Origin: Escherichia phage T5_ev219
DNA length: 64,000 nt
Sequence record: NC_134263.1
Strand: one strand, 5' to 3'
Shown here: in pieces, positions 337-63,437 of the stretch
How positions within the stretch are numbered: the first letter of the stretch is position 1
Layout: every line of letters begins with the position of its first letter
The notes under the pieces: model-generated
Databases searched by the model: none
The model's input: the letters and a program-made list of their open reading frames with translations, nothing else
What the model was told of the DNA's origin: nothing
Made by a program: the position numbers and the translations under genes

Positions 337-813
337 TCACATCTCAGCCATTTCAGCTTCAGTAATAACTGTGTTACACAGTGCATCTACAGCTTCATTA
401 CCACTAATACCAGAATGTCCTTTAACCTTAATAAAGGTAGGATTAGTATTATGAAAGTTGATATACTGCTGTGTTAATTTAAATGCTTCCTGCCAAAGTT
501 CTAGATTAAGAGGAACTTCACCATCTGCTTTCTTCCAGCCTTTCCTTTGCCAAGAAAACATCCAACTTTCCATACCATTTTTGCAATAAGCAGAATCAGT
601 ATAGATAGCAATTGGTCTATTATCTTTTTTAACGGACCAACGTAGAGCTTCTACAATAGCTGTGAGTTCCATCTCATTATTTGTAGTTTTAGGATTATAA
701 CCAGATTTAGAACCTAAACGATCGTCGTTATCATCATAGACAATAAAACCCCAAGCACCTGGACCTGGATTAGATTTACAAGCACCATCTGTGTAAATGT
801 GGAAAACGCTCAC
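337..813 (-). CDS. rnh: ribonuclease H (RNase HI-like)
   Basis: ORF track; motifs YTDGAC, TNNEMEL, GHSG..NE.AD typical of RNase HI. Confidence 0.85.
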   Translation of the reverse strand: MSVFHIYTDGACKSNPGPGAWGFIVYDDNDDRLGSKSGYNPKTTNNEMELTAIVEALRWSVKKDNRPIAIYTDSAYCKNGMESWMFSWQRKGWKKADGEVPLNLELWQEAFKLTQQYINFHNTNPTFIKVKGHSGISGNEAVDALCNTVITEAEMAEM

Positions 814-1358
814 TTATTAAGTTCCTCTATTGGTGGGTAATAGTTGGTATAGAAATCTTCTATAACTGCTTCGCTACCATGAAGTGTTTTTCTTAGTTTA
901 TTAGCCTTTATGACCGCACTTTCTAGGTCTAAGTAGTCAAAAACACCCCCGTAAATATTTTTACCATTATTATCAATCACCTGTACTTGCCATTTCTGTA
1001 GTTGTTTGTTCCAGTGTACACCTAGATATCCAGATTTACTCGATGTGGTACAATTTCTGTTATTAGACTGGCTTGTAGCTTCTCTTAGATTTATCCACCT
1101 ATTATCTGACCTAATTCTATTTTTGTGGTCTATTAAATCAGGTATTGATCCTGTCATATATAGAAAGGCTAACCTATGCGCTAAATAATCTATTTTATCT
1201 ATCTTAATAGTTATATATCCGTCTTTTCTTAGGTATCCAGCTGGCGAACCTGCTTTTCCTCCCCTACCACGACTTACCTTATTAGTAAATATACCAGTAT
1301 CTGGATCATAGATTAGTAGTTCTTTTAATCTTTCTTGGCTAGGTAACTTTTTACTCAT
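810..1358 (-). CDS. HNH homing endonuclease (AP2-like DNA-binding C-terminus)
   Basis: HNH-like DHKNR...DNRWINLR motif; clear paralog of ORF 23411-23941; inserted between core genes. Confidence 0.7.
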   Translation of the reverse strand: MSKKLPSQERLKELLIYDPDTGIFTNKVSRGRGGKAGSPAGYLRKDGYITIKIDKIDYLAHRLAFLYMTGSIPDLIDHKNRIRSDNRWINLREATSQSNNRNCTTSSKSGYLGVHWNKQLQKWQVQVIDNNGKNIYGGVFDYLDLESAVIKANKLRKTLHGSEAVIEDFYTNYYPPIEELNK

Positions 1359-1734
1359 CTAACCATCCTATGTCTATACTAAGTAATGCTTTTATTCCTG
1401 TAATACCTGTACCATAAGTATTATATCGAATAGCACTTCTGCTCTTTACTTCAAGTATATTTTCATGCTCTGTATTTTCTAGAATTTCTGTAGATATACC
1501 TAAATATCCTAATTGATCTTCCTCGTCCCAACCCATATCTTCTAGAAGATTTAGACGTAACTCTACCTTCTCATCTCCATTGCCTACAGAGTAGTAGTCT
1601 TCTAAAGTCCTGAATTTAGAAGTGATAGAGTCTAGTATTAATAATACCTGTTCCTTAGTAACAGTTTCTTTATCACTCTGCAAGTAATTGGAGTAACTCA
1701 GAAGGGCTTGTTCTAATTCAATTTCTTTACTCAT
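1351..1734 (-). CDS. hypothetical acidic protein
   Basis: ORF track 1351-1806 trimmed to ATG (MSKEIELEQ) at 1734 with AAGGAT RBS and own upstream promoter. Confidence 0.5.
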   Translation of the reverse strand: MSKEIELEQALLSYSNYLQSDKETVTKEQVLLILDSITSKFRTLEDYYSVGNGDEKVELRLNLLEDMGWDEEDQLGYLGISTEILENTEHENILEVKSRSAIRYNTYGTGITGIKALLSIDIGWLDE

Positions 1735-1763
1735 TTTATTATCCTTTTTGTACTTATTGAGTA

Positions 1764-1793
1764 TATTATATTTGAAATTGTACTTAATAAGCA
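1764..1793 (-). promoter_or_regulatory. sigma70-type early promoter (TTGCTT-18-TATAAT)
   Basis: Minus-strand TTGCTT at 1788-1793 and TATAAT at 1764-1769, upstream of gene 1351-1734. Confidence 0.5.
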
Positions 1794-1811
1794 AATACAA
1801 TTTCAAATATA

Positions 1812-21941: not shown

Positions 21942-23414
21942 ATGACCTTGTTTAACGTGCAAGCTGTAGTGTTGAAGATGCTTCTAGCTTCAGAACAGAA
22001 GCAAATAGCATTGGAAACATTCTCAAAACTGCATAAAGATCATTTTAATGACGCTTTCTCCTCAATTTACCAAGCCGTCCAGAATTATTATAAAAAATAT
22101 AACACAATGCCGTCCATTGACGCACTGATGCTTGAGGCTAATAGGAACGCCCGCCTTTCTCAAGCTCTAGTCGTTTTAGCTAACACTCAAATTCCAGAAG
22201 TTAGCATGGAACAGGCACTTGAAGTCCTAGAGGCCGAGTATACACAGGATTTATTCCTGAAGCTTCTAGAAACAGACGTGCTTCAAGATTTAACAATGCT
22301 GGATCAGGGAGAAATTCTTAACCGAGTTGCCTCCCTTCACTTAAAATTAGAAGAGAAAGTAACGAATACTGGAAAAGTATTCAACGCAGATAACATGCGT
22401 ATTTTCCAGAGAGAAGAAGATACCAAACTGAACTTAATCGCTCTTGGTATTTGTAATGAGTTCGACGCTCAAATTGGTTTAGCTCGCACAGAAACGTTAC
22501 TGCTTGGTGGTTGGCGTGGTACTGGTAAATCCATTATCTGTTCAAACATACAGGTTCAGCAATATTTGAATGGAGATATTGCTCCATACTTCTCAATTGA
22601 GATGAAAGAACATGAAGTATTTAGACGTAATCTAGCCATGTTAGCTGGTGTATCAGCACTAGCAATGCGTAATAATACTCTAGAAGGTGCAGCTCTGTTG
22701 AGATTAGCCAGAACTAGAGCTAGGATGTTTAACGGTGGTGAAGAGCTTTTCGATAACTTCGTTAAACAGTACACAATGGCTAAGATGAGTGATTTCTACG
22801 ATATGGAAAGTAAGCTAATAGAAGGGTATGAACTACATACTCCTATGATTATTGTTTATGATCCTGAGCTGTCTATTACAACAGTTGACGTAGAATTAAA
22901 TAAATTAGTTGCTAGATATGGTGATAAAGTTACAGTAGCTTTACTTGACTATATTAACCAAACCCGACTTCCAGATTCTAAAACCATTGATATGTATGAC
23001 TGGAAAGAACAGATGGTTGTTAGCTCGTCTTTCAAATCTATCTGCCAGAAACATAACGTGGCTGGTGTAGCTCCTTACCAGATTGATCAAGATGGTAGAA
23101 CACGTATGTCAAAGGGGATTCTTGATTCCGCAGACATGGCTGCTAATCTTAATGCTGCAAAAGCTGATAATGGTCAAGGTGCTATTATGTTTGACTTCGT
23201 TAAGACTCGTTCTTCTGATAGTGTGAAGTTTATGCCTAAAATGAACTGGGAAACCCTACGGATGGATAACACTACCAACCTAGCAATGGAAGATATATCT
23301 CAAATGGAAGCTGAGTTCGTTATCCCTATTGAGAAGGATAAGCCGGCTCAATCTAAACGTGCTAAGAAAGACAAAGCTGAAAATTCAACAGGTGAACAGG
23401 CCAGCGATATATGA
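21942..23414 (+). CDS. DnaB-like replicative helicase
   Basis: Walker A GGWRGTGKS, RecA-like core; ORF track start 21891 lies inside the terminator hairpin, so ATG 21942 with AAGGAG RBS preferred. Confidence 0.7.
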   Translation: MTLFNVQAVVLKMLLASEQKQIALETFSKLHKDHFNDAFSSIYQAVQNYYKKYNTMPSIDALMLEANRNARLSQALVVLANTQIPEVSMEQALEVLEAEYTQDLFLKLLETDVLQDLTMLDQGEILNRVASLHLKLEEKVTNTGKVFNADNMRIFQREEDTKLNLIALGICNEFDAQIGLARTETLLLGGWRGTGKSIICSNIQVQQYLNGDIAPYFSIEMKEHEVFRRNLAMLAGVSALAMRNNTLEGAALLRLARTRARMFNGGEELFDNFVKQYTMAKMSDFYDMESKLIEGYELHTPMIIVYDPELSITTVDVELNKLVARYGDKVTVALLDYINQTRLPDSKTIDMYDWKEQMVVSSSFKSICQKHNVAGVAPYQIDQDGRTRMSKGILDSADMAANLNAAKADNGQGAIMFDFVKTRSSDSVKFMPKMNWETLRMDNTTNLAMEDISQMEAEFVIPIEKDKPAQSKRAKKDKAENSTGEQASDI

Positions 23415-23941
23415 TAACACAGGAACGACTAAAAGAACTGTTTGACTACTCCCCAGAGACTGGGGAGTTTACTAGAAAAGTATCTAGAGGCAATCAGAAA
23501 GCTGGTAGTATTGCGGGTACTCTAGATAGTGGATACATACGGATAAAGGTAGATAGAAAATTATACTTTGCACACCAACTAGCCTTCCTATATATGGAAG
23601 GATATATGCCAGAGGAAGTAGACCATATTAATCGAATTACTTGGGATAATAGATGGATTAATATTAGGCCATCCACCCGGCAAGAAAATAGCAGAAATAA
23701 AACAGCTAGAAGTAAATCTGGATACTTGGGAGTTTTCTGGTTTAAGCGGGATCACAAATGGCATGTAAGAGTAGTAAATTCTATGGGAGAAAAAGTTCAC
23801 GGTGGGCTCTTTAATTACGCAGATCTAAAGCTTGCAGTCACTAAAGCCAATGAACTACGTCTACAATTACATGGAGAAAATGCTGTTCAAGAGATCTTTG
23901 ATCCAACTAAGTATCCTTCACTGGAGGAGTTAAATTCATGA
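23411..23941 (+). CDS. HNH homing endonuclease (paralog of 810-1358)
   Basis: Colinear similarity with 810-1358 protein (FT.KVSRG...AH.LAFLYM...DH.NRI..DNRWINIR); sits between helicase and primase. Confidence 0.7.
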   Translation: MITQERLKELFDYSPETGEFTRKVSRGNQKAGSIAGTLDSGYIRIKVDRKLYFAHQLAFLYMEGYMPEEVDHINRITWDNRWINIRPSTRQENSRNKTARSKSGYLGVFWFKRDHKWHVRVVNSMGEKVHGGLFNYADLKLAVTKANELRLQLHGENAVQEIFDPTKYPSLEELNS

Positions 23942-31581: not shown

Positions 31582-33400
31582 GACACTAAAATTTAGTAAC
31601 GTTATGTCTTACGGTAAGGACATCGTAATTCATTTCGATAAGAATCCAGTTACTCAACTAATTGGTGGCAATGGGCTGGGGAAATCCACCATCGCTACGG
31701 TTATCGAGGAATTGTTTTATAACAAGAACTCACGTGGTATTAAGAAGGATGCTCTGTTCTCCTGGTCTACTCCGAAAAAAGAGTATGATATGCACGCTTA
31801 CTTCTCAAAAGATGAAGATGAGTATGAATTGCATAAAGTAGTTAAATCCACTGCTAAAGTAACCCTTATTAAGAATGGAGAGGATATTAGTGGACACACG
31901 GCAACCCAAACATACAAGATGATTGAAGAGATTATGGGTGGTGACTTCCAAACATTCACCAAACTGATTTATCAATCGGTGGGTTCCAATCTAGATTTTC
32001 TAAAGGCAACGGATGCAACACGTAAGGCTTTTCTTGTTAACTTGTTCAATCAAGAACAGTACAAAGAAATGTCAGAAACTATTAAGGCTGATCGTAAAGA
32101 AATAGCAAATACCTTAAATAATTTGCAGGGCCAAATGGCTGTAATTACGAAAATCCTTAATGGAAAGAATAATCTGGGAACTTTGCAGGAACCTGTAGAA
32201 GTACCGGAGTTTGATGAAGAGCCATTAGCACAAGAACTTACTGAATCGAAAATTAAGGCGGCATTAGCCAAGTCTCAAGAGGCTAATATTACTAAATTGC
32301 GTAATTTGGACAAAGCTGTACAAGTTGCCGAACAATCTTTCGAACCTTTCAAAAATTTACCCGCGCCCACCGACCAAAATGAAGAGATCTCGAGTGTTAC
32401 GCGTGACCTAACGATTGTGACCTCACGTGCGGGCGAAGTTAAGAAACGTTATCAGAAGTTCAAGCAAGAGGCTTCAAATACTGAATGCCCTACTTGTGGT
32501 ACTCATCTAGATACAACTGCTGCTCAAAAAGCAATGGATATGGCTAGAATAGAATATGATCCTTTGTTCAACGAGAAGCAATCTCTTGAAGCTAAGCTAG
32601 AACAGTTGAAGAAAGAACAACTTGAGTACGTTGCGTATACTAGAGCAAAGGATGCTTTGGATAAAGCAGTGGTAGCTAGAGACGAGTTCAAAAATTCAAT
32701 GAGTGATGCTTCTTTTGAAGAACTCAATGTGCAAATCCTACAGGTGCAAATCCGACAATTAGAACAGGAAATCGCTGATGGCCGCTCTAAGGTTGCAATT
32801 GCTAAAGAGCATAATGCAAATGTCGAATTAGCCAATGCAAAATATAAAGCGAAACTAGAACAGATTGAGAAAGCTGAGGCAGAAATGTCTGAGATTACTT
32901 CCAAACTGGATGAGGTATCAGAAGCTGTTGCTGATCTCGATATTCTGATTGCTGCTTTGAAAAATCTGGTGGGATATAAACTAGAGCATAGTGTGAAAGT
33001 ATTTGAAGAACTAATTAATAAATACCTTTCTATTATGACTGGTGGTAAATTTGCACTTGGATTTGAACTTGATGAAACAAAATTACAAGTAGTAATCTTC
33101 AATGATGGAAACCGTACCAGTATGGAGAATTGCTCTACTGGTCAGCAAAGTCGAATCAACCTAGCAACTCTGTTAGCTATTCGAATGCTACTAACATCTA
33201 TTAGTAAAGTTAATATTAATCTTCTATTCCTTGATGAAGTAATTAGCTTTATTGATACAAAAGGACTTGATACTCTAGTTGAATTATTAAATGAGGAAGA
33301 AAGCCTAAATTCTATCATTGTTTCTCACGGGCATACGCATCCATTAGCCCATAAGATTACTGTTAAAAAAGATGCAGAAGGATTTTCCTACTTAGAATAA
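31562..33400 (+). CDS. SbcC/Rad50-like ATPase
   Basis: Walker A GGNGLGKST, central coiled coil with CPTCG zinc hook, signature SGQQSR, Walker B LLFLDEV; start trimmed to MSKITIKTLKF. Confidence 0.85.
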   Translation: MSKITIKTLKFSNVMSYGKDIVIHFDKNPVTQLIGGNGLGKSTIATVIEELFYNKNSRGIKKDALFSWSTPKKEYDMHAYFSKDEDEYELHKVVKSTAKVTLIKNGEDISGHTATQTYKMIEEIMGGDFQTFTKLIYQSVGSNLDFLKATDATRKAFLVNLFNQEQYKEMSETIKADRKEIANTLNNLQGQMAVITKILNGKNNLGTLQEPVEVPEFDEEPLAQELTESKIKAALAKSQEANITKLRNLDKAVQVAEQSFEPFKNLPAPTDQNEEISSVTRDLTIVTSRAGEVKKRYQKFKQEASNTECPTCGTHLDTTAAQKAMDMARIEYDPLFNEKQSLEAKLEQLKKEQLEYVAYTRAKDALDKAVVARDEFKNSMSDASFEELNVQILQVQIRQLEQEIADGRSKVAIAKEHNANVELANAKYKAKLEQIEKAEAEMSEITSKLDEVSEAVADLDILIAALKNLVGYKLEHSVKVFEELINKYLSIMTGGKFALGFELDETKLQVVIFNDGNRTSMENCSTGQQSRINLATLLAIRMLLTSISKVNINLLFLDEVISFIDTKGLDTLVELLNEEESLNSIIVSHGHTHPLAHKITVKKDAEGFSYLE

Positions 33401-42194: not shown

Positions 42195-45028
42195 TCCACA
42201 GACTGTTCTCCATCATCCCCTTCAGCCCTAATACGAAAATACAATTTTCTATTTATACCTAGAGCACCGCTGTTCTGGAGAGCAAAGTCTGCCTTATTAT
42301 ATGTTAATAAATAGTCATAAGTATACTGATTTTCAATACGTACACTTCTTAACATCCTATTTTGCGAATCGTGTATTTCAAGTGTATAAAATATACTCTC
42401 TATTATATCTTCTTCAGGTATTCTATCCCAAGCTAGTTTTACATCTGGGCCAACAAACTCAGTTACATCTCCAGAAGCAGTATTAGTTACCCTAAAATTA
42501 GATACTACACTAAGGTTTTTAGCAGAGTTAAGTTCTATAGACAGAGTCACCGGGGAACTTCTTCTACCATTAATATCTACTGCTCTTATCTCAAATATAG
42601 CCAGACCTGCTGGTTCCCCAATTATTTCTTGGATCATACGTTCGTTAGGATTGGTCTCTAACTGTTGTACTATGTAAGGTTCGGCATGGCCTGAGTGCAC
42701 AATAGAGTAATAAACTACATTATTGGTTAGACTCGGAAGCCAGGATAACTCACCATTTTTACCTATAGAGCCTACTAAACCGCCAGGAGTAGGGGTATAC
42801 TTAAAGTCCCTAGGAGGAAGGACATTATTACTAATATCGGGAATATCATTACCGCTATTATCAACCTGCTCAGAGTTGATGAATACATCTTCTCCATACT
42901 CCTGTAAGGTAACATTTATCTTACCCTCTCTAGAGTTTTCAACCTCATCAACTAGGAAATACTTTTTGTTCCACCCGTAACGGTCATACGTGAATGCAAT
43001 AGCATCATTGGGTTCAATCCCTATGAACTGGTATGGTAATGAGAATGAAAGTGTTCTTGAGTATCTGGATTTCTTAAGTTCTCTATCCGCAAAACTTCTT
43101 GCAGTATAGTAGTTAGTAATATTAGCAAAAGATAGTTGTAATTTTTTATCTAGGTTCTTGTCCTGTTCCTTATACTTGGAATTATAGAATGTAATAGAAT
43201 TAGTTTTCCAGCTAAGGGCGGGATCTACGATAGATGCTTGAACTGAGTTGAATTTATTTCTACCAGTAGTATCTGATAGCTCCAAATCACCGTAAGTATC
43301 TAGAAAATTAATCTCTAATGGAGTATTAGAGTATTTTTCTACAGTAACCCTATACTGGCCAGATAAATTGTTAATAGCCCCACCATAGGACTCTAACAAA
43401 CCTTGCACATTTTTAAATACTGATTCAGATGTATCCAGAATAGTATTCATTTGTACTATTTGTCTATTTTCTGCTAGTGGATCAGTCCACCCAACGTATC
43501 TCCAGTATGGCTGCCAAGATACTTGGTAGGATTCATCTATAATATCTAAGATAGCTGCTTCTTGTATCAGTTGCTGAAGCGGGAACTGATCAATAGTAAT
43601 GTTAGCGCCGTATCTATCTGAAGTTAGATAATCAAGCGTTTGCCAGATACCATTTAAACTAGTACTATCAGCAGTTACTCTACCATCAGAATGATAGACT
43701 TTTACTTTTTTACCTTGAATTTCAGCACTAACTTCAGGAATCTCAGTCCTATTTTCATTAATAGTGAAGCGCACCACTGCGTACGCAGTATCTAGTAGTT
43801 TATACCTAGCATCCCAGTACTCCGGCCCATTGCCATTCATATTCTGAAGGTAAAACCCACGTTCTTTAGCTATATCTACTAGTACTTCAGAAGCCGTTTG
43901 GTCAGGTTTTCCATGATACGTCCAAATCCTTATATCACCATTACCATCATTATACTTATATTCCTGACCATGCACAGAAGGACTACTAGAAGATATTCCT
44001 GATGCTATTCTTTGCATGGTGTCTCCGGCTACTTTTTTAACACCGAAACAGGTTCTAGCAGAGCTATCATTAGAGTCCATACAAATCATAGGGTTATCCC
44101 CAAAGGAAAAGTCAAGAAAACCGTCTATCTCTCCTTCAGCAAAAGCATATACTACGTAAACTATATTAGGATTGTGTAATTCCGTATCCGCAAAAATAGG
44201 TATTCCCGGTATTTTCTGTACACCATAAACTACTGGTATATACTTAGCAGCAAGGTTAAAATCTATATCTACTTCTTTAGTAACAGTCTCATAATACTTT
44301 TTAAGACTATAACTTCTAGATAGTCCAAATAGCTTTTTCTTAGACTTTAGCTTGTATCTTTCTTCCTGTACCTGATACTTTGCTAGAATAGAGATACTTT
44401 TATTGGCATGAAAGAAACCGTAGTCTTCTTGGTACTCAAGTCTTTTAGCCCCGTTAGATGGAACTAACTGCCCTGCTACAACCTCAAGCCCTCTATGAGA
44501 AGCATCATCAGTAAATCTACCATTAACCCTATCAAAATCATAGAATTGATTAGAACAATTCCAAGTAATTGTGGAGGTTCCAACCCCAGAAGTACTAATG
44601 TTGTCCTTAATACCCCCGCCGGTAATTCTCCCTCTAAAGTATAATAAAGGCCCGTTTGTGTCTGGGTCTACAGGTAAAATAGAACCATCCTCTGTAATAA
44701 TTGCTTGGTGGATTGATACTATTCTATCTAAAAAGGACACACCATTCTGCACTAATTTCAGTACTTCATCCTGCGCTGTACCTGTAATAGTAAAAGATAG
44801 ACTGCCAATAGATAAATCTCTATTTTGTTTATGTGTGCTAATAGATTTAACTTTACCGGCCTGGTACAAAATACCATTATATAGTACATCTCTAAAATAA
44901 TCAGTTAAATAGATAAAAGCAGTACTAGTACCAGTAGAGCCAGGTAATTCTAGGGAAATTAGACTAGCAGTTTTTATTCTGCTATTATTTTTTAAGTAGT
45001 TTCTAGCACTATCTAGTATTTTCTTCAT
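42179..45028 (-). CDS. baseplate hub protein (pb3-like)
   Basis: 949 aa, same length I recall for T5 pb3; synteny after tape measure and pb9. Confidence 0.6.
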   Translation of the reverse strand: MKKILDSARNYLKNNSRIKTASLISLELPGSTGTSTAFIYLTDYFRDVLYNGILYQAGKVKSISTHKQNRDLSIGSLSFTITGTAQDEVLKLVQNGVSFLDRIVSIHQAIITEDGSILPVDPDTNGPLLYFRGRITGGGIKDNISTSGVGTSTITWNCSNQFYDFDRVNGRFTDDASHRGLEVVAGQLVPSNGAKRLEYQEDYGFFHANKSISILAKYQVQEERYKLKSKKKLFGLSRSYSLKKYYETVTKEVDIDFNLAAKYIPVVYGVQKIPGIPIFADTELHNPNIVYVVYAFAEGEIDGFLDFSFGDNPMICMDSNDSSARTCFGVKKVAGDTMQRIASGISSSSPSVHGQEYKYNDGNGDIRIWTYHGKPDQTASEVLVDIAKERGFYLQNMNGNGPEYWDARYKLLDTAYAVVRFTINENRTEIPEVSAEIQGKKVKVYHSDGRVTADSTSLNGIWQTLDYLTSDRYGANITIDQFPLQQLIQEAAILDIIDESYQVSWQPYWRYVGWTDPLAENRQIVQMNTILDTSESVFKNVQGLLESYGGAINNLSGQYRVTVEKYSNTPLEINFLDTYGDLELSDTTGRNKFNSVQASIVDPALSWKTNSITFYNSKYKEQDKNLDKKLQLSFANITNYYTARSFADRELKKSRYSRTLSFSLPYQFIGIEPNDAIAFTYDRYGWNKKYFLVDEVENSREGKINVTLQEYGEDVFINSEQVDNSGNDIPDISNNVLPPRDFKYTPTPGGLVGSIGKNGELSWLPSLTNNVVYYSIVHSGHAEPYIVQQLETNPNERMIQEIIGEPAGLAIFEIRAVDINGRRSSPVTLSIELNSAKNLSVVSNFRVTNTASGDVTEFVGPDVKLAWDRIPEEDIIESIFYTLEIHDSQNRMLRSVRIENQYTYDYLLTYNKADFALQNSGALGINRKLYFRIRAEGDDGEQSVEWASI

Positions 45029-56537: not shown

Positions 56538-57032
56538 TTAGCCTCCAGGAACAGTAGGATTAACTGTCACAGCACATGCAGTAGAATCCTTACTTACTTG
56601 CTTACTATCTGTTACAGTTACTTTATAGGCTCCAGAATCCTCCGTAGCTGCTGCAGGCTTAGTATAGGTAGCTCCTGAAGCTTCCGGAATAGGAGAACCA
56701 TCTTTAGTCCATGCATAAGTATATGGACTAGTACCACCAGTTACAGTAACAGAAAGTGTTAATGCTGCTCCCTCTTCAACCGACATGCTAGCAGTTAAAT
56801 CTTTAGAAAGAGTTAACGGTGGGGCCGGTGGAGCAGGAGGAACTGCTTTACCATAAGCCTCTACAAATTTCTTCCATACTTTACGGTTAGTATGCGCAGA
56901 TGAAAGCCCTAGTTCTCTACGCAGAAAAGCATAGCTAGGAACATATTTATGCGCAGCAACCGTAGCAAAGAAGATATGAGATTCTGGTAGTTTTTCACCA
57001 AAAATGGTCTTTAGACCATTATAATCAATCAT
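56538..57032 (-). CDS. capsid decoration protein with Ig-like domain (pb10-like)
   Basis: 164 aa; Ig-like segment TVTGGTSPYTYAWTKDGS. Confidence 0.6.
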   Translation of the reverse strand: MIDYNGLKTIFGEKLPESHIFFATVAAHKYVPSYAFLRRELGLSSAHTNRKVWKKFVEAYGKAVPPAPPAPPLTLSKDLTASMSVEEGAALTLSVTVTGGTSPYTYAWTKDGSPIPEASGATYTKPAAATEDSGAYKVTVTDSKQVSKDSTACAVTVNPTVPGG

Positions 57033-58246
57033 TCTTTATCTCCCTCGGTGGAACCTTGAGGTCTACCACCTTCTTGACCAGATACACCTGTTGCAGAACC
57101 AGCAACGTTAGCAGGAATACGAATCTTATCCATCTGCTCATCATCTAAAGGTTCAAGGTTCAGCTCTAAACGAGCTTCGTTACCAGTCATAATACCATTA
57201 TTAACCAATGAGGTTAAATGTTTAGCCTCAGCTTCTTTATCTGGTGTTAATGCAGCTACTTCCTTAGTATTAGGAGTAATCTTATAACCAAAAAAGAAAG
57301 TAAGAGAACTAGTCAGTTTGTTCAGCATAGGAATGATAGTCATATAATAGAACAATTCGATGTTTGGTCGAATATTCGCATTATTACCACCATCAAGCAG
57401 TACTTGCGGAACTCCAAAGGCTAGACAAATAGATTTATTAAATCCTTCGATGTCTTCCTTAAAGTCTAGATCTTTAAAAGAGGATATTTGGGAGTACGGT
57501 TTAGCTTTCATACCACCATCTAGAATCAGGACAGAAGACTGACCCGTACTAGGATTATAATCGAGTTGTAATTCTTCTTGTTTACGCTCACGCAATTTCT
57601 TGTTCAGGATTTCATCCGTCTCAAGAATAAGACCAATCACGGTTCCGTTATCGAGGAATTTCTCTTTAAAGTTAAGCATCTTAGAACGCTTCTCAAGAGA
57701 ATCAATAACAGTAGCAACACGAGATTGTCCAGAAATTTGAGAATTTGTGCCGCACACGTAACTGTTATCCTTTATAAAGATAATCTCATCTACGCGATAG
57801 TTTATCTGATTATTAAATATAAATTTTTTGATAAACTTATTGGCATCTGCCTCGACCTGCATAAGAGCAGCCGGGACATGGTAAAGCGATGTGCCATCCC
57901 AATAGATGTATGCACAACCTTCAAAAAGTAGGTCAGTGACTACAAGTCTACGGAATGTGCTTATATCCATGAATGGATTAGGTCGTACATTTAAGAGAGT
58001 GTCTAGAGTCTTTGTTTTGACGCCATTAGCGTACGTAACAATATTATATTTATCTCCGACAGTATAAGAACACTCCGCCGCACTATCTATAACCATATTA
58101 GCAGTTCTATTGAGAATCTCAATTTTACTGTAGGCTTGTCCAGTGGTAAAAGGCTTACGGTTAGTGCGATGACTAACTGGTTCCATGTCTCTTATAATAC
58201 GTTGACCCGGATTTAACTTTTCAGTAATCCAGCTTTTTAAACCCAT
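57029..58246 (-). CDS. portal protein
   Basis: 405 aa; position between terminase/endonucleases and head genes. Confidence 0.75.
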   Translation of the reverse strand: MGLKSWITEKLNPGQRIIRDMEPVSHRTNRKPFTTGQAYSKIEILNRTANMVIDSAAECSYTVGDKYNIVTYANGVKTKTLDTLLNVRPNPFMDISTFRRLVVTDLLFEGCAYIYWDGTSLYHVPAALMQVEADANKFIKKFIFNNQINYRVDEIIFIKDNSYVCGTNSQISGQSRVATVIDSLEKRSKMLNFKEKFLDNGTVIGLILETDEILNKKLRERKQEELQLDYNPSTGQSSVLILDGGMKAKPYSQISSFKDLDFKEDIEGFNKSICLAFGVPQVLLDGGNNANIRPNIELFYYMTIIPMLNKLTSSLTFFFGYKITPNTKEVAALTPDKEAEAKHLTSLVNNGIMTGNEARLELNLEPLDDEQMDKIRIPANVAGSATGVSGQEGGRPQGSTEGDKE

Positions 58247-58698
58247 TATAAGAACCTTGCGAATCCTGATTTTATTTCAGTCTTGACTTGTGTCTTTTCT
58301 TGAGGATTCTGTAATTTGTCTTTCTGCTTTTGAACCCACACTTTTTGCTTATTAGCAGAAAATAAAGGAGGTTCTTTCGTGTAAACCTTATGTAATAGTT
58401 GGTGATGGTGCTGGCACAATGTTACCACGTCCCTAACTAACTCATGCTCATATTTCTTGTAGAATGCTTCCCTATTTGAAAGGACGATATTCTCATCAGT
58501 GAAATCCAGCTGGAGTTCTTTAGCAAATTTTTTTATTAGCTGAGATATAGTATGATAGTGATGAAGTTCTAGGTCTTCACTACTACCACATATAGCACAG
58601 CAACCATCCTTACTATACCTAGATTTTATACCATCCCTCATTATGGAAATGGCATCACGTTTGTACTTAGTATTAGTGGCCATACTCCTCCAATCCAA
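58246..58698 (-). CDS. HNH endonuclease
   Basis: Cys/His-rich HNH motif CAICGSSEDLELHHYH...CQHHHQLLH. Confidence 0.65.
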   Translation of the reverse strand: MDWRSMATNTKYKRDAISIMRDGIKSRYSKDGCCAICGSSEDLELHHYHTISQLIKKFAKELQLDFTDENIVLSNREAFYKKYEHELVRDVVTLCQHHHQLLHKVYTKEPPLFSANKQKVWVQKQKDKLQNPQEKTQVKTEIKSGFARFL

Positions 58699-59347
58699 AG
58701 CTACTTAGAAAGATTACTATATCCTCAGGAGCAACATTAAAAAATTCCGTGCTTCCTGTAAAATTAGAAAACCCACAGTTTTTATTATAATATTCTCTGT
58801 GAACTTCCTTTTCTAAATCTAAAGCAGTCTCTCTATCTGGCAGATGATACATGGTGAACAAGTATAGGTCAGAAAATCCAGATTCTCTTTTAACTTCATT
58901 CAACCGTTTCTCAGGGTATAAGCTTATGCCTACTTTAGTACCACTAGAGGAGGACATGATATAGAGGAATCCGCCATTCTCCCATTTAAGAGAACAATAA
59001 GGACATCTCTTACCTTGAGTCAATCCATCTAAGGTAATGAAACAGTCATGCCCATTATTGCAGCGTAGATGTAGTTTTGTTTTAGCATTAGTATAGCTGC
59101 TTAACAGAGTATACCCTATATTAGATATTCTGTTACTAACTTCATCTAACGATATTGTATTATTGGAGCAGTGTGGACAACCTCTCCTCATATGGAGTAT
59201 AGAATGTGGTGTTGCTTCCCAAACGTGTGCTCTCTGGCATTTAAATACTGTTTTTGTACGTTGGTTTACATATTCACCGACAATTTGGATTCCACGATCA
59301 GCTAATCTAATATTTATATCTTTTATTGTTAGCTTTTGTCGACCCAT
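58673..59347 (-). CDS. putative homing endonuclease (zinc-ribbon N-terminus, GIY-YIG-like core)
   Basis: CxxC...CPHCS and CPYCS ribbons; GFLYIM...KVGIS...RLNEVKR resembling GIY-YIG; TAGGAG RBS. Confidence 0.45.
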   Translation of the reverse strand: MGRQKLTIKDINIRLADRGIQIVGEYVNQRTKTVFKCQRAHVWEATPHSILHMRRGCPHCSNNTISLDEVSNRISNIGYTLLSSYTNAKTKLHLRCNNGHDCFITLDGLTQGKRCPYCSLKWENGGFLYIMSSSSGTKVGISLYPEKRLNEVKRESGFSDLYLFTMYHLPDRETALDLEKEVHREYYNKNCGFSNFTGSTEFFNVAPEDIVIFLSSFGLEEYGH

Positions 59348-59518
59348 AGAATCTCCTACACCCCATGTAGAGCATTAATTTTTCTTGTTTACGTTCTATT
59401 ATGGGAGAAGTTCTCCCGATCAATGAATATAGTATACATAATCGTATCGAATTTGTAAAGGGGATTTTAAAATACAGGAATGGGATACCAACTGAGTAGT
59501 ATCCCATCCTATACTTAC

Positions 59519-60835
59519 TTATTTACCACGGGAAATAGAGTAAATTCCATAGCGTAGTGCATCACAAAGGTGAGAGTTAGCATCATGACGTGGTTTTTCA
59601 CGCGATAATTTCTCTTCGCCTTCTTGGAAGTCCCACTTATAGTTCTGCAATGCATGGATTAATGAAGAGCATGAAGCATCTACAATAATCTTACCCTGCT
59701 GGAATAGCGCTTGCAAGCATGCTAGACCATCTAGGACAGATTTTTTAGCTGGAGCTGATGCAATTTCATGTTCATAAGCTAAGTCCTGGCGGAACTGGGC
59801 AGCCGCGGAGTCAACGAAGATACGATCTACGTTATAACGATCTATACAGTGCTGAATATACGCAGCATGCTGAGCTGTGGTTTTCTCCGCCTGCTGGTAC
59901 TCTTCTAATACGTAGTAAGTATCCGTATCGTAATGATACTTAATAGTAAGAACTGCTGTAGGATCACGATAACCAACGTCAATACCAAGCAACGTTTCGA
60001 ATGCTTCATCATCTTTAAAGAAGTGACGCATACCTTTGAGGTCTTTAACATGATCGATAGCGTTAAAGGTATCAAAGATCTGACCTTCGAATACAGAGAA
60101 ATCAGCCTCATATTCCTGACGGAAGTAGTTTTTACTAACTGTACGACGTGCTTCTTCGATATCATTCAGATCAGCACGTGGGTTATCACGATATGTACCA
60201 TGAATAGATACCCAGTTAGGTAACGTATCATCAAATCCATAAGCGTAAAACTCTTTAAACCAGTTACCACCACGAGGGGTGGAAATAAATAGAGCCTTAG
60301 AATTAGGTTTATCTAGAGTAGGACGTAACTGAACCCTAAAGGCATCACCACCTACATCGGAAATTGCAGCCTCATCAAAGATGATAAAATCATATGAACG
60401 TCCAACTGCGGAGTCAGCCTGAGCAGCAGAAGCTAGTTTAAACAGAGAACCATTAGCCAACTCTATTTCTTTATCTTTAGCGTTTTCACGTTCGGTTTGT
60501 AGGCCATACTTCTTAATAAGACCACGAATCTGTGACCATCCAATATTAGCCAGTGAATAGTTAGGTGCAACAACAAGCACTTTTACATTAGGTTCCAGCA
60601 ACTTTAGGAACCCAAGTGTATATGCTATAAAGGACTTGCCTACACGGCGTGATACACACGCCGTTACAAAACGATGTCTAGGGTCTTCTAGGGCATTGAT
60701 AATTGCTATTTGAGGGCCGTTAGGTGTAATACCTTCTTGTGCTAGTATTCCTGAAACAGGTAGACGAAAGAAACGTTTATCTATTCCGAAATCAATAACA
60801 TCTACTGTGTTAACGTAGGGTCTTGATACTTCCAT
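59519..60835 (-). CDS. terL: terminase large subunit
   Basis: 438 aa; Walker A-like VSRRVGKS, ATPase + RNase H-like nuclease fold. Confidence 0.9.
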   Translation of the reverse strand: MEVSRPYVNTVDVIDFGIDKRFFRLPVSGILAQEGITPNGPQIAIINALEDPRHRFVTACVSRRVGKSFIAYTLGFLKLLEPNVKVLVVAPNYSLANIGWSQIRGLIKKYGLQTERENAKDKEIELANGSLFKLASAAQADSAVGRSYDFIIFDEAAISDVGGDAFRVQLRPTLDKPNSKALFISTPRGGNWFKEFYAYGFDDTLPNWVSIHGTYRDNPRADLNDIEEARRTVSKNYFRQEYEADFSVFEGQIFDTFNAIDHVKDLKGMRHFFKDDEAFETLLGIDVGYRDPTAVLTIKYHYDTDTYYVLEEYQQAEKTTAQHAAYIQHCIDRYNVDRIFVDSAAAQFRQDLAYEHEIASAPAKKSVLDGLACLQALFQQGKIIVDASCSSLIHALQNYKWDFQEGEEKLSREKPRHDANSHLCDALRYGIYSISRGK

Positions 60836-61317
60836 TATTTCTTACCTCCAGTAGCCAGGGAAGTAATTAAGTCCATGTAGTTTTGATCCCCAGCTCCAGC
60901 AATAATATTATTCTGGATATTGGTCTGATTAGCAGGAGCACGGACGGCAGCTTTAGCTTTTTCTAGCTCCACCATCATTTTCATCTCTTCCATCTTCATT
61001 TTATGTGCCTTCCAGAGAATGTCCATAATATCCTGGTCAGAACCCATGCCAGTTTCTTCTAGCTCTTCTAGCTTACGCTTAATAACTTCATCTAGAACAC
61101 CAAATAAACGATCTCTATTACGGAATCCACTCTCCATAAAAATATCATTTAAGTAGTTTTTAACTTCGCTACGATTCATAATATCTCGGAAAGCAATTTC
61201 AGACATTCCAAGACTACGTGCGGCAGAAGGCACATCACTGCCACACTGTAAATAGGCTTCAATCACATCCATCCCTTCAGGGGACATAAGATCTGGTACT
61301 AATACATCATTTGCCAT
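60835..61317 (-). CDS. terS: terminase small subunit
   Basis: 160 aa with N-terminal HTH; directly upstream of terL. Confidence 0.6.
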
Positions 61318-61327
61318 ATTTCCTCCT

Positions 61328-63085
61328 TTAGGTAAGGCGTTGAACTGTTACTCTTAATCTAGGTAGGAAAACTGCACTACCCAAACTCACGTGCATAACT
61401 ACCCCTAACTCTACATTTCCATTTCCTAAATTTTTAACAGTGTATATAAAACTGTTTCTACTTAGAGCATTGTTAGGTGTATATCTAAAAGCAGATGTAG
61501 TATGAAACGGTACTAGATAGCCCACAGGTAGCGTTAAAATCTGGTGGAATATTGCATCCCCGCCGCTATAGCTATATGCTCTTCTTCCTTGCACTTGAAA
61601 CACACCATTATTCCATGTATTAGCTGGAACACCCGCACAATTAAGATTACCTGATATAACTTCAGTAGTAAGAATTACTGTAGCATTTCCGCCTGGTATA
61701 CCCAGCCCAATAGTTGATAAACCAACGTATCTATCACCCGTTCCTGGGTAGCTGGGAGTAATATCATCTCCCATATAAGAGCTACCTACATTTCCACCAA
61801 AAAGTCGCAGTGGAACTGCTGAGGGTCCCCAAACAACTCCATGCTCGTTACCAATAGTATTATCGTTAGAGTTTACATACCACTGTTTACCTACTCCGAA
61901 CTTATAAATGCTAATCTGTGATTTAGCTCCACCATAGTCTACAGGAGACCACAACCCTCCATTACTAGACCCTACAAGTTCACATCTTGCCGTGGTATCA
62001 CCAAAAACCCCGGTATACGCTGCGTTATTTCCGATGAATTCCATATCTGGCCTATAGCCTAAGTTACCAAAAGCATTCTGGTTAATAAACTTATACCCGG
62101 TATTAGGGAGATTCACCCCTTTAATTATGAAATTAGAAGGAGATATAAGAATATCAGAACCAGTAAAGGGGTTGCCGGAAATACTCATACCACCATTCGA
62201 GTACCTTAAATTAAGAACATACCAAATAACCTTAGTAGGAGTTATATTATACCAATCCTGTATTACTGTAGGGTTGCCAGACTGATTGGCCAGATTAGTA
62301 GTAGATCCCCTACAAACAAATCTGTTCCCGCCGTCGTGGTACATAGTATTTACATTACCTGGGAGCCCTTGCCTAACCCCACCATACCCACGTATATTAG
62401 AATTGCAAACATAAAACCAATCATGCCCTCTATGTGCTGCTCCTAGAGGCGACATCCATCCAGGATCCCAATAGTACGGGTTATTGCCATCTACAGGTAC
62501 TGTGCTACTATTAGTAGGAAAACCTAATTGTGCAAAGGCTTCTGCAACAGTAACACCTACAGGAGCTCCCGCACCGGGCCTAACTATACCGTGGTAGGTA
62601 CTATGTAACGTAGTACCACCTGTGCCACTCCTAGAGATAGATTCTTCGTGCCCTATCGAGGGGTTATAATTATAAGTTCCAGATGCGAGGCTGTTACCAA
62701 ATGCAAATCCACTGGTTTGAGAAACACTAGCAAAAGATCTAAAGGGATCTGCCTGAGTGGCAACTATAGTTTGACCAACTTTACTCTGAGTACCGTTAAG
62801 AAAAGCTCTGTGAGTACCATTAATTTCAATAGCAGTTAGTATAACTCTACCAGGATCATTAGATTTAATATTTATTATATCAGGAGGCATCTGACATACG
62901 AAAAACCCATTCCCGGCATCACCTAATCCTGCCTCATAAGTACCATCAACTAGAACAAATGGCATATCACTATGAAAAATACTATTATTATTTGGACTAT
63001 AGTGACGATTAATGTCACCCCCAGATTCAGTATTTAAAGATAGTACGGTCTTACCATCGCTATACTTTCCAGCGAAAAAACCCAT
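61328..63085 (-). CDS. receptor-binding tail protein (pb5-like)
   Basis: 585 aa Gly-rich beta protein; divergently paired with lipoprotein gene as in T5 oad/llp. Confidence 0.55.
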
Positions 63086-63170: not shown

Positions 63171-63437
63171 ATGAAAAAGTTTGTAATTGCACTAGTTGCC
63201 ACAGTTATGTTATCTGGTTGTGCACCTGCTCCCAAACCATTTTGTACGGGATTTGTAAAATCTTTTGGTGGTGCGGGAGAAGAACATTACGGTCTCAAGG
63301 TTCAAAAAGTTCGTATTAAGGGAGATCGCTTTCCAGTAGTACAGCTCCGTACTAAGTTTGGGTGGTGGGATCTCAGTCAGTTTGACCTTAAATATGGTGA
63401 TTGTAAATTTAAACTAGAGCAATCTAATTACTTGTAA
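63171..63437 (+). CDS. llp: lipoprotein, likely lytic-conversion/superinfection-exclusion lipoprotein
   Basis: Signal peptide with lipobox LSGC; 88 aa; divergent from receptor-binding gene. Confidence 0.65.
   Translation: MKKFVIALVATVMLSGCAPAPKPFCTGFVKSFGGAGEEHYGLKVQKVRIKGDRFPVVQLRTKFGWWDLSQFDLKYGDCKFKLEQSNYL

Follow-up and report, generated by a model that had tools for sequence, protein, structure and literature searches.

Two minus-strand open reading frames that overlap each other, at 58246-58698 (150 amino acids when read from a TTG) and 58673-59347 (224 amino acids), lie between the portal protein gene and the gene for the terminase large subunit (TerL) in Escherichia phage T5_ev219 (NC_134263.1), of which a stretch of 64,000 nucleotides was analyzed (the window). 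The features of this region, together with two free-standing HNH_3 endonuclease genes found elsewhere in the window, are listed in Table 1. The stop codon of the first frame (ORF1) overlaps the start of the portal gene, and the second frame (ORF2) is inserted between a promoter-like site and the ribosome-binding site of ORF1. The promoter-like site is conserved in all of the aligned genomes, with or without ORF2, and in the T5 record AY692264 an annotated promoter feature lies under the match to this region. No further paralogs of ORF1 or ORF2 were found within the window. The region is an ordinary and largely described one, and it fits published descriptions of T5-like phages. The preliminary description was right to place two overlapping nuclease genes between terminase and portal and, as detailed below, partly right that they interrupt a conserved junction.

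Table 1. Positions of the terminase-portal features and of the HNH_3 genes in the window
Feature	Coordinates	Strand	Basis
Portal protein gene, flanking core gene	57029..58246	-	Pfam Phage_portal 1e-50
ORF1, T5-type nicking endonuclease (SciA / T5.153), 145-aa HNH/His-Me enzyme, core gene	58246..58683	-	PDB match, phrog_3497 3e-68, synteny
Diverged nickase allele linked to ORF2, first ~95 codons, co-conversion-like tract	58401..58690	-	Identity contrast with flanks
ORF2, free-standing homing-type endonuclease gene, T5.154 homolog	58673..59347	-	Pfam, phrog_681 "endonuclease"
Presence/absence segment, 732 bp	58691..59422	-	Nucleotide alignment with saus111K, Sepoy, T5 and DT57C
Promoter-like site TTTACA-17-TATACT	59431..59459	-	Consensus scan, 10/12 matches
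Terminator-like hairpin, directly past the TerL stop codon	59478..59509	-	Consensus scan, 13-pair stem followed by a T-run
Terminase large subunit gene (TerL), flanking core gene	59519..60835	-	Pfam Terminase_6N and Terminase_6C
HNH_3 free-standing endonuclease gene, between the RNase H and thymidylate synthase genes	810..1358	-	Pfam HNH_3 8e-14, phrog_99
HNH_3 free-standing endonuclease gene, in the helicase/primase ATGA overlap	23411..23941	+	Pfam HNH_3 3e-12

ORF1 is nearly identical to the protein deposited as "Nicking endonuclease" in PDB entries 9qgv and 9qgx (E=1e-94), its residues 5-150 aligning with residues 3-148 of those chains with a handful of substitutions, one of which falls at the first His of LELHH, the residue engineered in the PDB mutants. 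Compared with the T5 homolog, which is known as T5.153, T5p149, ORF142 or sciA, ORF1 is 100% identical over codons 1-95 and differs by three amino acids in the remainder; its homologs in DT57C and Sepoy are annotated as sciA or nicking endonuclease. The protein carries the Cys/His pattern of an HNH enzyme (CxxC...ELHHYH...C.HHHQLLH), and an HNH/His-Me motif with putative zinc ligands (CxxCG...ELHHYH...C..HH..LHK) is conserved from Escherichia coli phages to Vibrio phages. A Pfam search of ORF1 returned no match at E<=0.01 (the best was HNH_2, E=0.51), its match to the HNH PHROG was weak (2e-7), and an NCBIfam search of five proteins gave nothing useful. The start codon is most likely the ATG at 58683 (145 amino acids, as in T5.153) and not the TTG at 58698, because the alignment with ORF2-less genomes and T5.153 indicate the same start; the mechanically called frame from the TTG is 5 codons longer upstream, and this TTG is probably not used. 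With the ATG start, the overlap between ORF1 and ORF2 is 11 nucleotides.

The biochemical role of ORF1 as a nickase is assigned from database names, the PDB molecule name and secondary citations. Two late genes, sciA and sciB, have been reported as responsible for nicking in T5, and nick-less T5 mutants are viable (PMC3517423); phage Key retains the nickase while lacking the extra endonuclease of T5 (PMC10194208). ORF1 occupies the same position upstream of the portal gene as the T5 nicking endonuclease and shows no difference of substance from it. The T5 major-nick consensus RGCGCRGG has 2 matches in the window against 1.92 expected, an uninformative result.

Homologs of ORF1 were found by tblastn in 898 phage records at 901 places, so that the gene is single-copy, and the T5-type portal gene was found in 903 records with the same taxon breakdown. 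The identity of ORF1 declines gradually across phages of Escherichia, Salmonella, Klebsiella, Proteus and Vibrio, as expected of a vertically inherited gene. In all five lineages sampled (Tequintavirus, Epseptimavirus, Sugarlandvirus, Novosibvirus and Vibrio phages; checked in Sepoy, DT57C, Sugarland, Vibrio D115 and Stubb), ORF1 adjoins the portal gene, and this adjacency is kept even in Proteus phage Stubb, where a receptor-binding gene stands between the ORF1 homolog and TerL. ORF1 is, in short, a single-copy gene immediately upstream of portal in the Demerecviridae. Judged by these sequence relationships, it is the conserved T5 nicking endonuclease, a core gene and not a homing insertion, and the proposal that it is an inserted free-standing homing endonuclease fails on the record counts, the five-lineage synteny and the PDB match. 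The conserved order at the junction is TerL-nickase-portal, to which ORF1 belongs, and ORF2 alone interrupts the TerL-nickase part of it. The preliminary description had itself named conservation in all relatives with an essential function as evidence against homing; the conservation holds for ORF1, but essentiality does not, given the viable nick-less mutants.

ORF2 encodes zinc finger modules at residues ~29-62 and ~78-119, corresponding to a DUF4379 treble clef and CapR, followed by a C-terminal T5orf172/MUG113 nuclease domain at ~126-211. The Pfam matches (T5orf172, 1.5e-8; MUG113, 8.6e-9; CapR, 1.5e-8; DUF4379, 1.4e-7) all pass the Pfam cut-offs, so that ORF2 combines a nuclease domain of a recognized family of homing endonuclease genes (HEGs) with a DNA-binding module. 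T5orf172 has been described as a GIY-YIG subfamily (PMC10448857), and although ORF2 has no direct Pfam match to GIY-YIG, its earlier characterization as zinc-ribbon and GIY-YIG-like agrees with these domains. Catalytic competence is predicted from the Pfam matches. A PDB search with the ORF2 sequence found no relative of solved structure, returning chance ankyrin-like matches only, and a single-sequence AlphaFold model had a mean pLDDT of 37.7 and was unusable. ORF2 is 100% identical to a "putative homing endonuclease" of IrisVonRoten. Its homologs occur in 403 records at 555 places, multi-copy and bimodal in identity, with distant homologs in unrelated phages of Bacillus, Listeria, Campylobacter and Dickeya. 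The T5 counterpart, T5.154, is annotated at 277 amino acids in the reference, with an N-terminal extension that is unsupported in the window. Barth, Dunham and Seed (2023) reported that T5orf172 HEGs with CapR/DUF zinc fingers are enriched in T5-like phages, that 35% of them neighbor a terminase gene and that nuclease activity has been demonstrated for at least one family member (PMC10448857). ORF2 resembles the T5orf172 HEGs of T5-like and ICP1 phages in joining CapR/DUF4379 zinc fingers to a C-terminal T5orf172 domain, in being free-standing and terminase adjacent and in marking a boundary of genetic exchange. RNA structures that hide the ribosome-binding site occur for some T4 endonuclease genes; the 104-nucleotide leader over the ORF2 ribosome-binding site gave a z score of -1.7, with 17 of 200 shuffles folding as well, which is not significant.

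The distribution of ORF2 is sporadic. About 72-80 of ~440 close relatives carry it (72/440 by direct count) and about 80% lack it, and the insertion boundary is the same in all of the aligned genomes, with a sharp upstream edge. In genomes that lack ORF2, the 732-bp segment is replaced by 11 nucleotides (ACAGTTGAGGA) bearing the nickase ribosome-binding site. The copy in DT57C is decayed, its ATG having become ACG and internal deletions having accumulated, and decayed copies are also found in two IMG/VR contigs. In Epseptimavirus S124, a cassette of ~1.1 kb (about 59500-58401) is 97 to 100% identical to the window, versus 80 to 88% for its flanks; ORF2 has been laterally transferred across a genus boundary as this cassette, together with the 5' allele of the nickase gene. 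The identities, distributions, cassette boundaries, lateral transfer and decay are direct observations. Absence from most relatives, decay and recent transfer together point to a cycle of gain, decay and loss of ORF2 and to no maintained function. ORF2 is accordingly best described as behaving as a mobile free-standing homing-type endonuclease gene, the status first proposed for it, on the grounds of its sporadic presence at a fixed site, its lateral transfer, the linked flank allele and the decayed copies.

The nickase tract at 58401..58690 is 98 to 100% identical among genomes with ORF2 or a remnant of it versus ~74% in all ORF2-less genomes, whereas the flanks of the tract are 91 to 100% identical. 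The breakpoint is sharp, at ~58400, and falls at the HHHQLLH codons. Over codons 1-95 the two alleles differ by 30 synonymous and 22 nonsynonymous changes, compared with 2 and 2 over codons 96-145, and across the whole collection the first ~95 codons are bimodal, with 81 records at >=90% identity and 437 at 60 to 80%. Among the carriers of ORF2 or a remnant, 10 have the allele of the window (allele A) and 1 has another, versus none and 19, respectively, among the noncarriers. This linkage is not universal: in Sugarland the ORF2 homolog occupying this site is 53% identical and yet the nickase allele is B-like, and in L016 a variant of ORF2 occurs together with a third nickase allele. An old polymorphism, moved by recombination simply as a unit, could also account for the dimorphism.

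The two HNH_3 genes elsewhere in the window are 57% identical (E=3e-69) and are the only such copies in it. The full-length region of the gene at 810-1358 was found in 31 of 438 relatives; it is absent from T5, and the indel was mapped against T5 and Spc35. The gene at 23411-23941 is present in 70 of 443 relatives and forms a seamless insertion of 527 bp where the stop and start codons of the helicase and primase genes overlap (ATGA), with exact junctions relative to chee24; VEc33 and Shivani carry a 66%-identical alternative allele at this site, where homologs are annotated as "HNH and AP2/ERF" (Shivani) and "hegJ_2 ... P-TflX" (mar003J3). Both genes thus have an HNH_3 domain, a sporadic distribution and a precise intergenic insertion, and the view that they are paralogs inserted between core genes is well founded. 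They are taken to be mobile endonuclease genes of the same lifestyle as ORF2, at other core-gene junctions. A known system, described in a 2004 reference cited in PMC5714182, shares their HNH_3 domain and lies in the tRNA region, whereas the genes described here lie at rnh/thy and helicase/primase.

Several other readings of the locus were weighed. Very little credence can be given to the idea that ORF1 and ORF2 are both free-standing homing endonucleases inserted in tandem at the terminase-portal junction. Both are of nuclease type, they overlap and ORF2 does take the 5' part of ORF1 along when it moves; however, ORF1 is single-copy, nearly matches portal in its number of records, adjoins portal in the five lineages sampled, falls in identity with host taxonomy and corresponds to the crystallized T5 nicking endonuclease, and its distribution refutes it as a homing endonuclease. 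ORF1 could instead be a terminase-associated HNH protein of the HK97 gp74 type whose main role is to assist the terminase in cutting DNA for packaging and whose nicking is secondary. Its conserved place within the TerS-TerL-portal block accords with such a role, as does the annotation of TerS in DT57C as "probable sciB protein," a tie between the genetics of nicking and the terminase. HK97 gp74-type proteins (Kala et al. 2014, as cited in PMC10448857) are, like ORF1, small HNH proteins in the packaging/head gene block. ORF1 differs from that type in being tied to portal rather than to TerL, as in Stubb, where the receptor-binding gene parts the nickase from TerL, and in having nicking as its attributed role, with nick-less mutants viable (PMC3517423). 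Since ORF1 also lacks a significant Pfam HNH-family match, and T5 has long terminal repeats and not cos ends (PMC10644984), this role is considered unlikely.

For ORF2, domestication is improbable, be it into a regulator that binds DNA in the manner of the satellite protein CapR or into a nuclease directed against satellites or competitors in the manner of ICP1 Odn. The CapR homology domain, the position of ORF2 just downstream of the operon promoter and the documented co-option of T5orf172/CapR modules (PMC10448857, PMC8096241, PMC8263062) would suit a retained function, but the gene is missing from about four-fifths of close relatives, is decayed in DT57C and the two IMG/VR contigs and has recently moved between genera at 98 to 100% identity with the flank allele included. 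It is likewise unlikely that a passive indel, moved by ordinary homologous recombination without any homing driven by an endonuclease, accounts for the presence/absence pattern and for the nickase allele linked to it. The breakpoints do coincide with the promoter region and the HHHQLLH codons, both of them highly conserved, and any recombination would be resolved in such stretches; against this, the inserted gene encodes a nuclease domain from a family with activity demonstrated in at least one member (PMC10448857), the pattern recurs at three sites in the window with a nuclease gene each time, and substitutions are clustered beside the insertion sites.

The preferred explanation, to which a probability of roughly 85% is assigned, is that ORF1 is the conserved nickase of the TerL-nickase-portal order, that ORF2 is a selfish free-standing endonuclease gene inserted into it and that the HNH_3 genes are mobile as well. 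ORF1 would be a small zinc-binding HNH enzyme, part of the ancestral TerL-nickase-portal arrangement, that is expressed late, along with the genes for the head and for packaging, and whose product probably makes site-specific interruptions in one strand of T5-type virion DNA. ORF2, which occupies the 5' leader of the nickase-portal operon, with the operon promoter upstream of it and the nickase ribosome-binding site downstream, would be expressed from the host operon. In a mixed infection, we infer, the ORF2 product would cleave the allele that lacks ORF2, at the start of the nickase gene or close to it, and repair templated by the genome that carries ORF2 would copy ORF2 along with the first ~300 nucleotides of the nickase gene. 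The diverged nickase 5' allele of carriers is presumably uncleavable, and cutting followed by repair would yield the ~1.1-kb cassette seen here.

The seg and mob genes of T4, such as mobE (PMC2790892), provide a close parallel, being intergenic and sporadic and having a linked tract of polymorphism in an adjacent gene, as at the ORF2 locus. ORF2 belongs to another nuclease subfamily and has other DNA-binding modules, and its co-converted tract covers the catalytic, N-terminal two-thirds of a different nuclease gene. Moreover, crosses and cleavage mapping support the T4 cases, whereas that of ORF2 is known from sequence comparison. A further suggestion is offered very tentatively, as something that is probably not the case: each ORF2 homing event might replace the catalytic, DNA-contacting N-terminal two-thirds of the nickase with a derived allele (22 to 25 amino acid differences per 95 residues), giving endonuclease-defined nickase classes (A, B and C) that perhaps differ in nick-site specificity or pattern, or the ORF2 target might lie inside the nickase gene, with two nucleases coevolving at one locus.

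These results correct the assumption that a conserved nuclease beside packaging genes is a homing endonuclease merely for being HNH. The modestly useful outcome is a map of a ~1.1-kb mobile cassette, in which the nickase is sharply dimorphic in its first ~95 codons according to whether ORF2 is, or formerly was, present. T5 itself carries the minority, derived nickase allele (~81 of ~440 close relatives), a caveat for comparisons of nick patterns and for generalizing from the T5 nickase structure.

The window comes from a T5-like phage (subfamily Markadamsvirinae), with the minus-strand order TerS, TerL, ORF2, ORF1, portal. Across the TerS-portal region T5 is 98.5% identical to the window, T5.153 corresponding to ORF1 and T5.154 to ORF2. 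Elsewhere in the window, adjoining the receptor-binding protein gene (61328-63085), a plus-strand ORF of 88 aa (63171-63437) carries a lipoprotein-type signal (MKKFVIALVATVMLSGC) and probably encodes Llp, the lytic conversion lipoprotein of the T5 type.

Features of the TerS-portal region and the two HNH_3 endonuclease genes in the window
Feature	Position	Strand	Basis or remark
TerS	60835-61317	minus	PHROG phrog_3802
TerL	59519-60835	minus	Pfam
Terminator-like hairpin	59509-59478	minus	after TerL
Promoter-like TTTACA-17-TATACT	59459-59431	minus	downstream of hairpin; common to genomes with and without ORF2
ORF2	58673-59347	minus	
ORF1	58246-58698	minus	counted from TTG
Portal	57029-58246	minus	Pfam
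HNH_3 gene, rnh/thy copy	810-1358	minus	
HNH_3 gene, helicase/primase copy	23411-23941	plus	

The preliminary description took both ORFs between TerL and portal to be inserted homing endonucleases. For ORF1 the comparisons argue otherwise: tblastn found it at 901 places in 898 phage records, indicating a single-copy gene, against 903 records for the portal protein, with the same taxon breakdown. Its identity declines gradually, being followed from the Escherichia and Salmonella phages to those of Klebsiella and Proteus and on to the Vibrio phages. The gene lies immediately 5' of portal in Sepoy (Epseptimavirus; annotated SciA), DT57C (annotated sciA, nicking site-specific endonuclease), Sugarland (Sugarlandvirus), Vibrio phage D115, and Proteus phage Stubb, the last with a receptor-binding gene between TerL and the nickase gene; it is likewise 5' of portal in Erwinia phage Key, which lacks the endonuclease gene found in T5 between TerL and the nickase (PMC10194208). 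A Pfam search with ORF1 gave no match at E<=0.01, and two PDB chains, 9qgv_A and 9qgx_A, each named "Nicking endonuclease", match it at E=1e-94; in these chains the first His of ELHH is changed (H to Q, H to A), the pattern expected of catalytic mutants. The CxxC, ELHHYH, and C..HH..LHK motifs are kept in every genus compared. Alignment with genomes that lack ORF2 indicates ATG 58683 as the start codon; the product is then 145 aa long, and the ORF1/ORF2 overlap is 11 nt. By homology and synteny, ORF1 is a conserved core gene, that of the T5 nicking endonuclease (nickase).

The nicks in T5 DNA are due to two late genes, sciA and sciB; mutants without nicks are viable, and four of the T5 major nicks have the consensus R/GCGCRGG (PMC3517423). 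Going by this literature, the ORF1 product would make strand-specific nicks in phage DNA late in infection. Exact matches to RGCGCRGG occur in the window only at 32360-32367 and 44770-44777, both on the minus strand, a count of 2 against 1.92 expected and thus at chance level. The former lies roughly at what we take to be the map position of the T5 "64.8%" nick.

For ORF2 the homing reading holds. It combines DUF4379 and CapR zinc fingers with a C-terminal T5orf172/MUG113 domain; T5orf172 is described as a GIY-YIG subfamily in which one member or more has demonstrated nuclease activity (PMC10448857). Of 440 related records, only 72 covered 80% or more of 58100-59600, the remainder lacking ORF2. 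A tblastn search located 555 places in 403 records (maximum five per genome), with identity of >=80% in ~80 records and <60% in 321; distant homologs were found in Bacillus, Listeria, Staphylococcus, Campylobacter, and Dickeya phages and at other sites in T5-like genomes. Nucleotide alignment placed an abrupt upstream edge of the insertion at 59423/59422, directly past the shared promoter-like site, and where the window has 58691-59422, genomes lacking ORF2 have 11 nt (ACAGTTGAGGA). Only decayed ORF2 is left in DT57C, where the ATG has become ACG and there are internal deletions, and in two IMG/VR contigs. The DT57C remnant (L004, 2326-2843) is unannotated and lies between terL and sciA; in it, as in L014 and L033, the middle is deleted and scrambled, the 3' end is kept, and the ORF2-linked nickase allele is retained. 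These comparisons mark ORF2 as a free-standing endonuclease gene that is mobile.

The true start of ORF2 is probably ATG 59347, which is preceded by a GGAG ribosome-binding site, since GGGG at ~59363 (minus strand, 5' of the ATG) in the window, DT57C, and others, against GGG in T5, puts 53 upstream codons out of frame. The N-terminal extension of T5.154 in T5 is probably an annotation artefact; the T5 reference (L001, 3074-3907) annotates this protein as 277 aa "with a single transmembrane domain".

Identity between the window and S124 (Epseptimavirus), scored in 100-nt windows, is 78 to 94% (mostly 80 to 88%) over TerS and TerL, 97 to 100% from ~59500 to 58401, and down to 82% beyond, which is direct evidence that a block of ~1.1 kb moved laterally and recently. 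The transferred block takes in the first ~300 nt of the nickase gene. This 5' segment is 94 to 100% identical to the window in 10 of the 11 fetched genomes with ORF2 or a remnant and ~74% identical in all 19 without; the 3' ends of TerL and nickase and the 5' end of portal are 91 to 100% identical in both groups (Tequintavirus-type backbones). The exception among the 11 carriers, L016, has an ORF2 variant 87% identical and a third nickase allele. Collection-wide, the segment is bimodal, at >=90% in 81 records (about the number of close ORF2 copies), 80 to 90% in 2, and 60 to 80% in 437. Alleles A (window and T5) and B (ORF2-less genomes) differ in 52 of the first 95 codons (30 synonymous, 22 nonsynonymous) and in only 4 of the last 50, and the catalytic motifs are intact in every allele. 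Outgroups are closer to B than to the ORF2-linked alleles A and C (that of L016), so that by this comparison A and C are derived forms. A second ORF2 lineage, at ~87% nucleotide identity, was seen in IMG/VR contigs L016 and L012, linked to the third 5' allele in the former (78% to the window) and to a recombinant allele in the latter (94%).

The Klebsiella phage Sugarland (L005, 2501-3181) has an ORF2 homolog, 53% identical, at the same TerL/nickase site and with the same short overlap, next to a B-like nickase allele of the ORF2-less type. This arrangement could mean either that the association is old and has since been lost many times or that homing to this one site has occurred repeatedly.

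The description of the two HNH genes as mobile paralogs agrees with our comparisons: they share 57% identity (E=3e-69), with no further HNH_3 copies within the window, and occur in 31 of 438 relatives (rnh/thy copy, full-length) and in 70 of 443 (helicase/primase copy). T5 lacks the rnh/thy copy and the adjacent 151-aa ORF (1351-1806, minus strand), which had no match in NCBIfam. The rnh/thy spacer of Spc35 contains a different, unrelated small ORF (93 aa), marking this spacer as a hypervariable spot. In chee24 the start codon of primase overlaps the stop codon of helicase in an ATGA, and in the window a 527-bp gene is set seamlessly into it, the overlap being recreated at both ends; substitutions in the primase gene are concentrated in its first ~70 nt. 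In VEc33 and Shivani this site is occupied by an alternative HNH_3 gene, 66 to 67% identical with conserved termini. Different phages thus have at least two HNH_3 variants at the helicase/primase junction (23411-23941 in the window; 1212-1745 in L040 and L041), with 66 to 67% protein identity. The variants are near-identical at their two ends (~34 N-terminal and ~10 C-terminal residues) and the middle has diverged, which suggests recombination inside this endonuclease gene.

Everything agrees with published accounts: the nickase of T5 is already annotated and its structure deposited, T5 was already known to have about nine HNH genes, and T5-like phages are enriched for T5orf172 endonuclease genes, 35% of which adjoin terminase genes, marking genetic-exchange boundaries (PMC10448857). 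What is new is a small point, the dimorphism of the nickase allele. Beyond the identities, distributions, boundaries, transfer, and decay, which are observed directly, we infer a cleavage step by ORF2. Expressed off the nickase-portal promoter, ORF2 would in a mixed infection cut the ORF2-less allele near the nickase gene start, and recombinational repair would copy ORF2 together with the neighbouring resistant nickase allele. The exchange would resolve at the conserved promoter region at one end and at the HHHQLLH codons at the other. Each HNH_3 gene would act likewise at its own junction.
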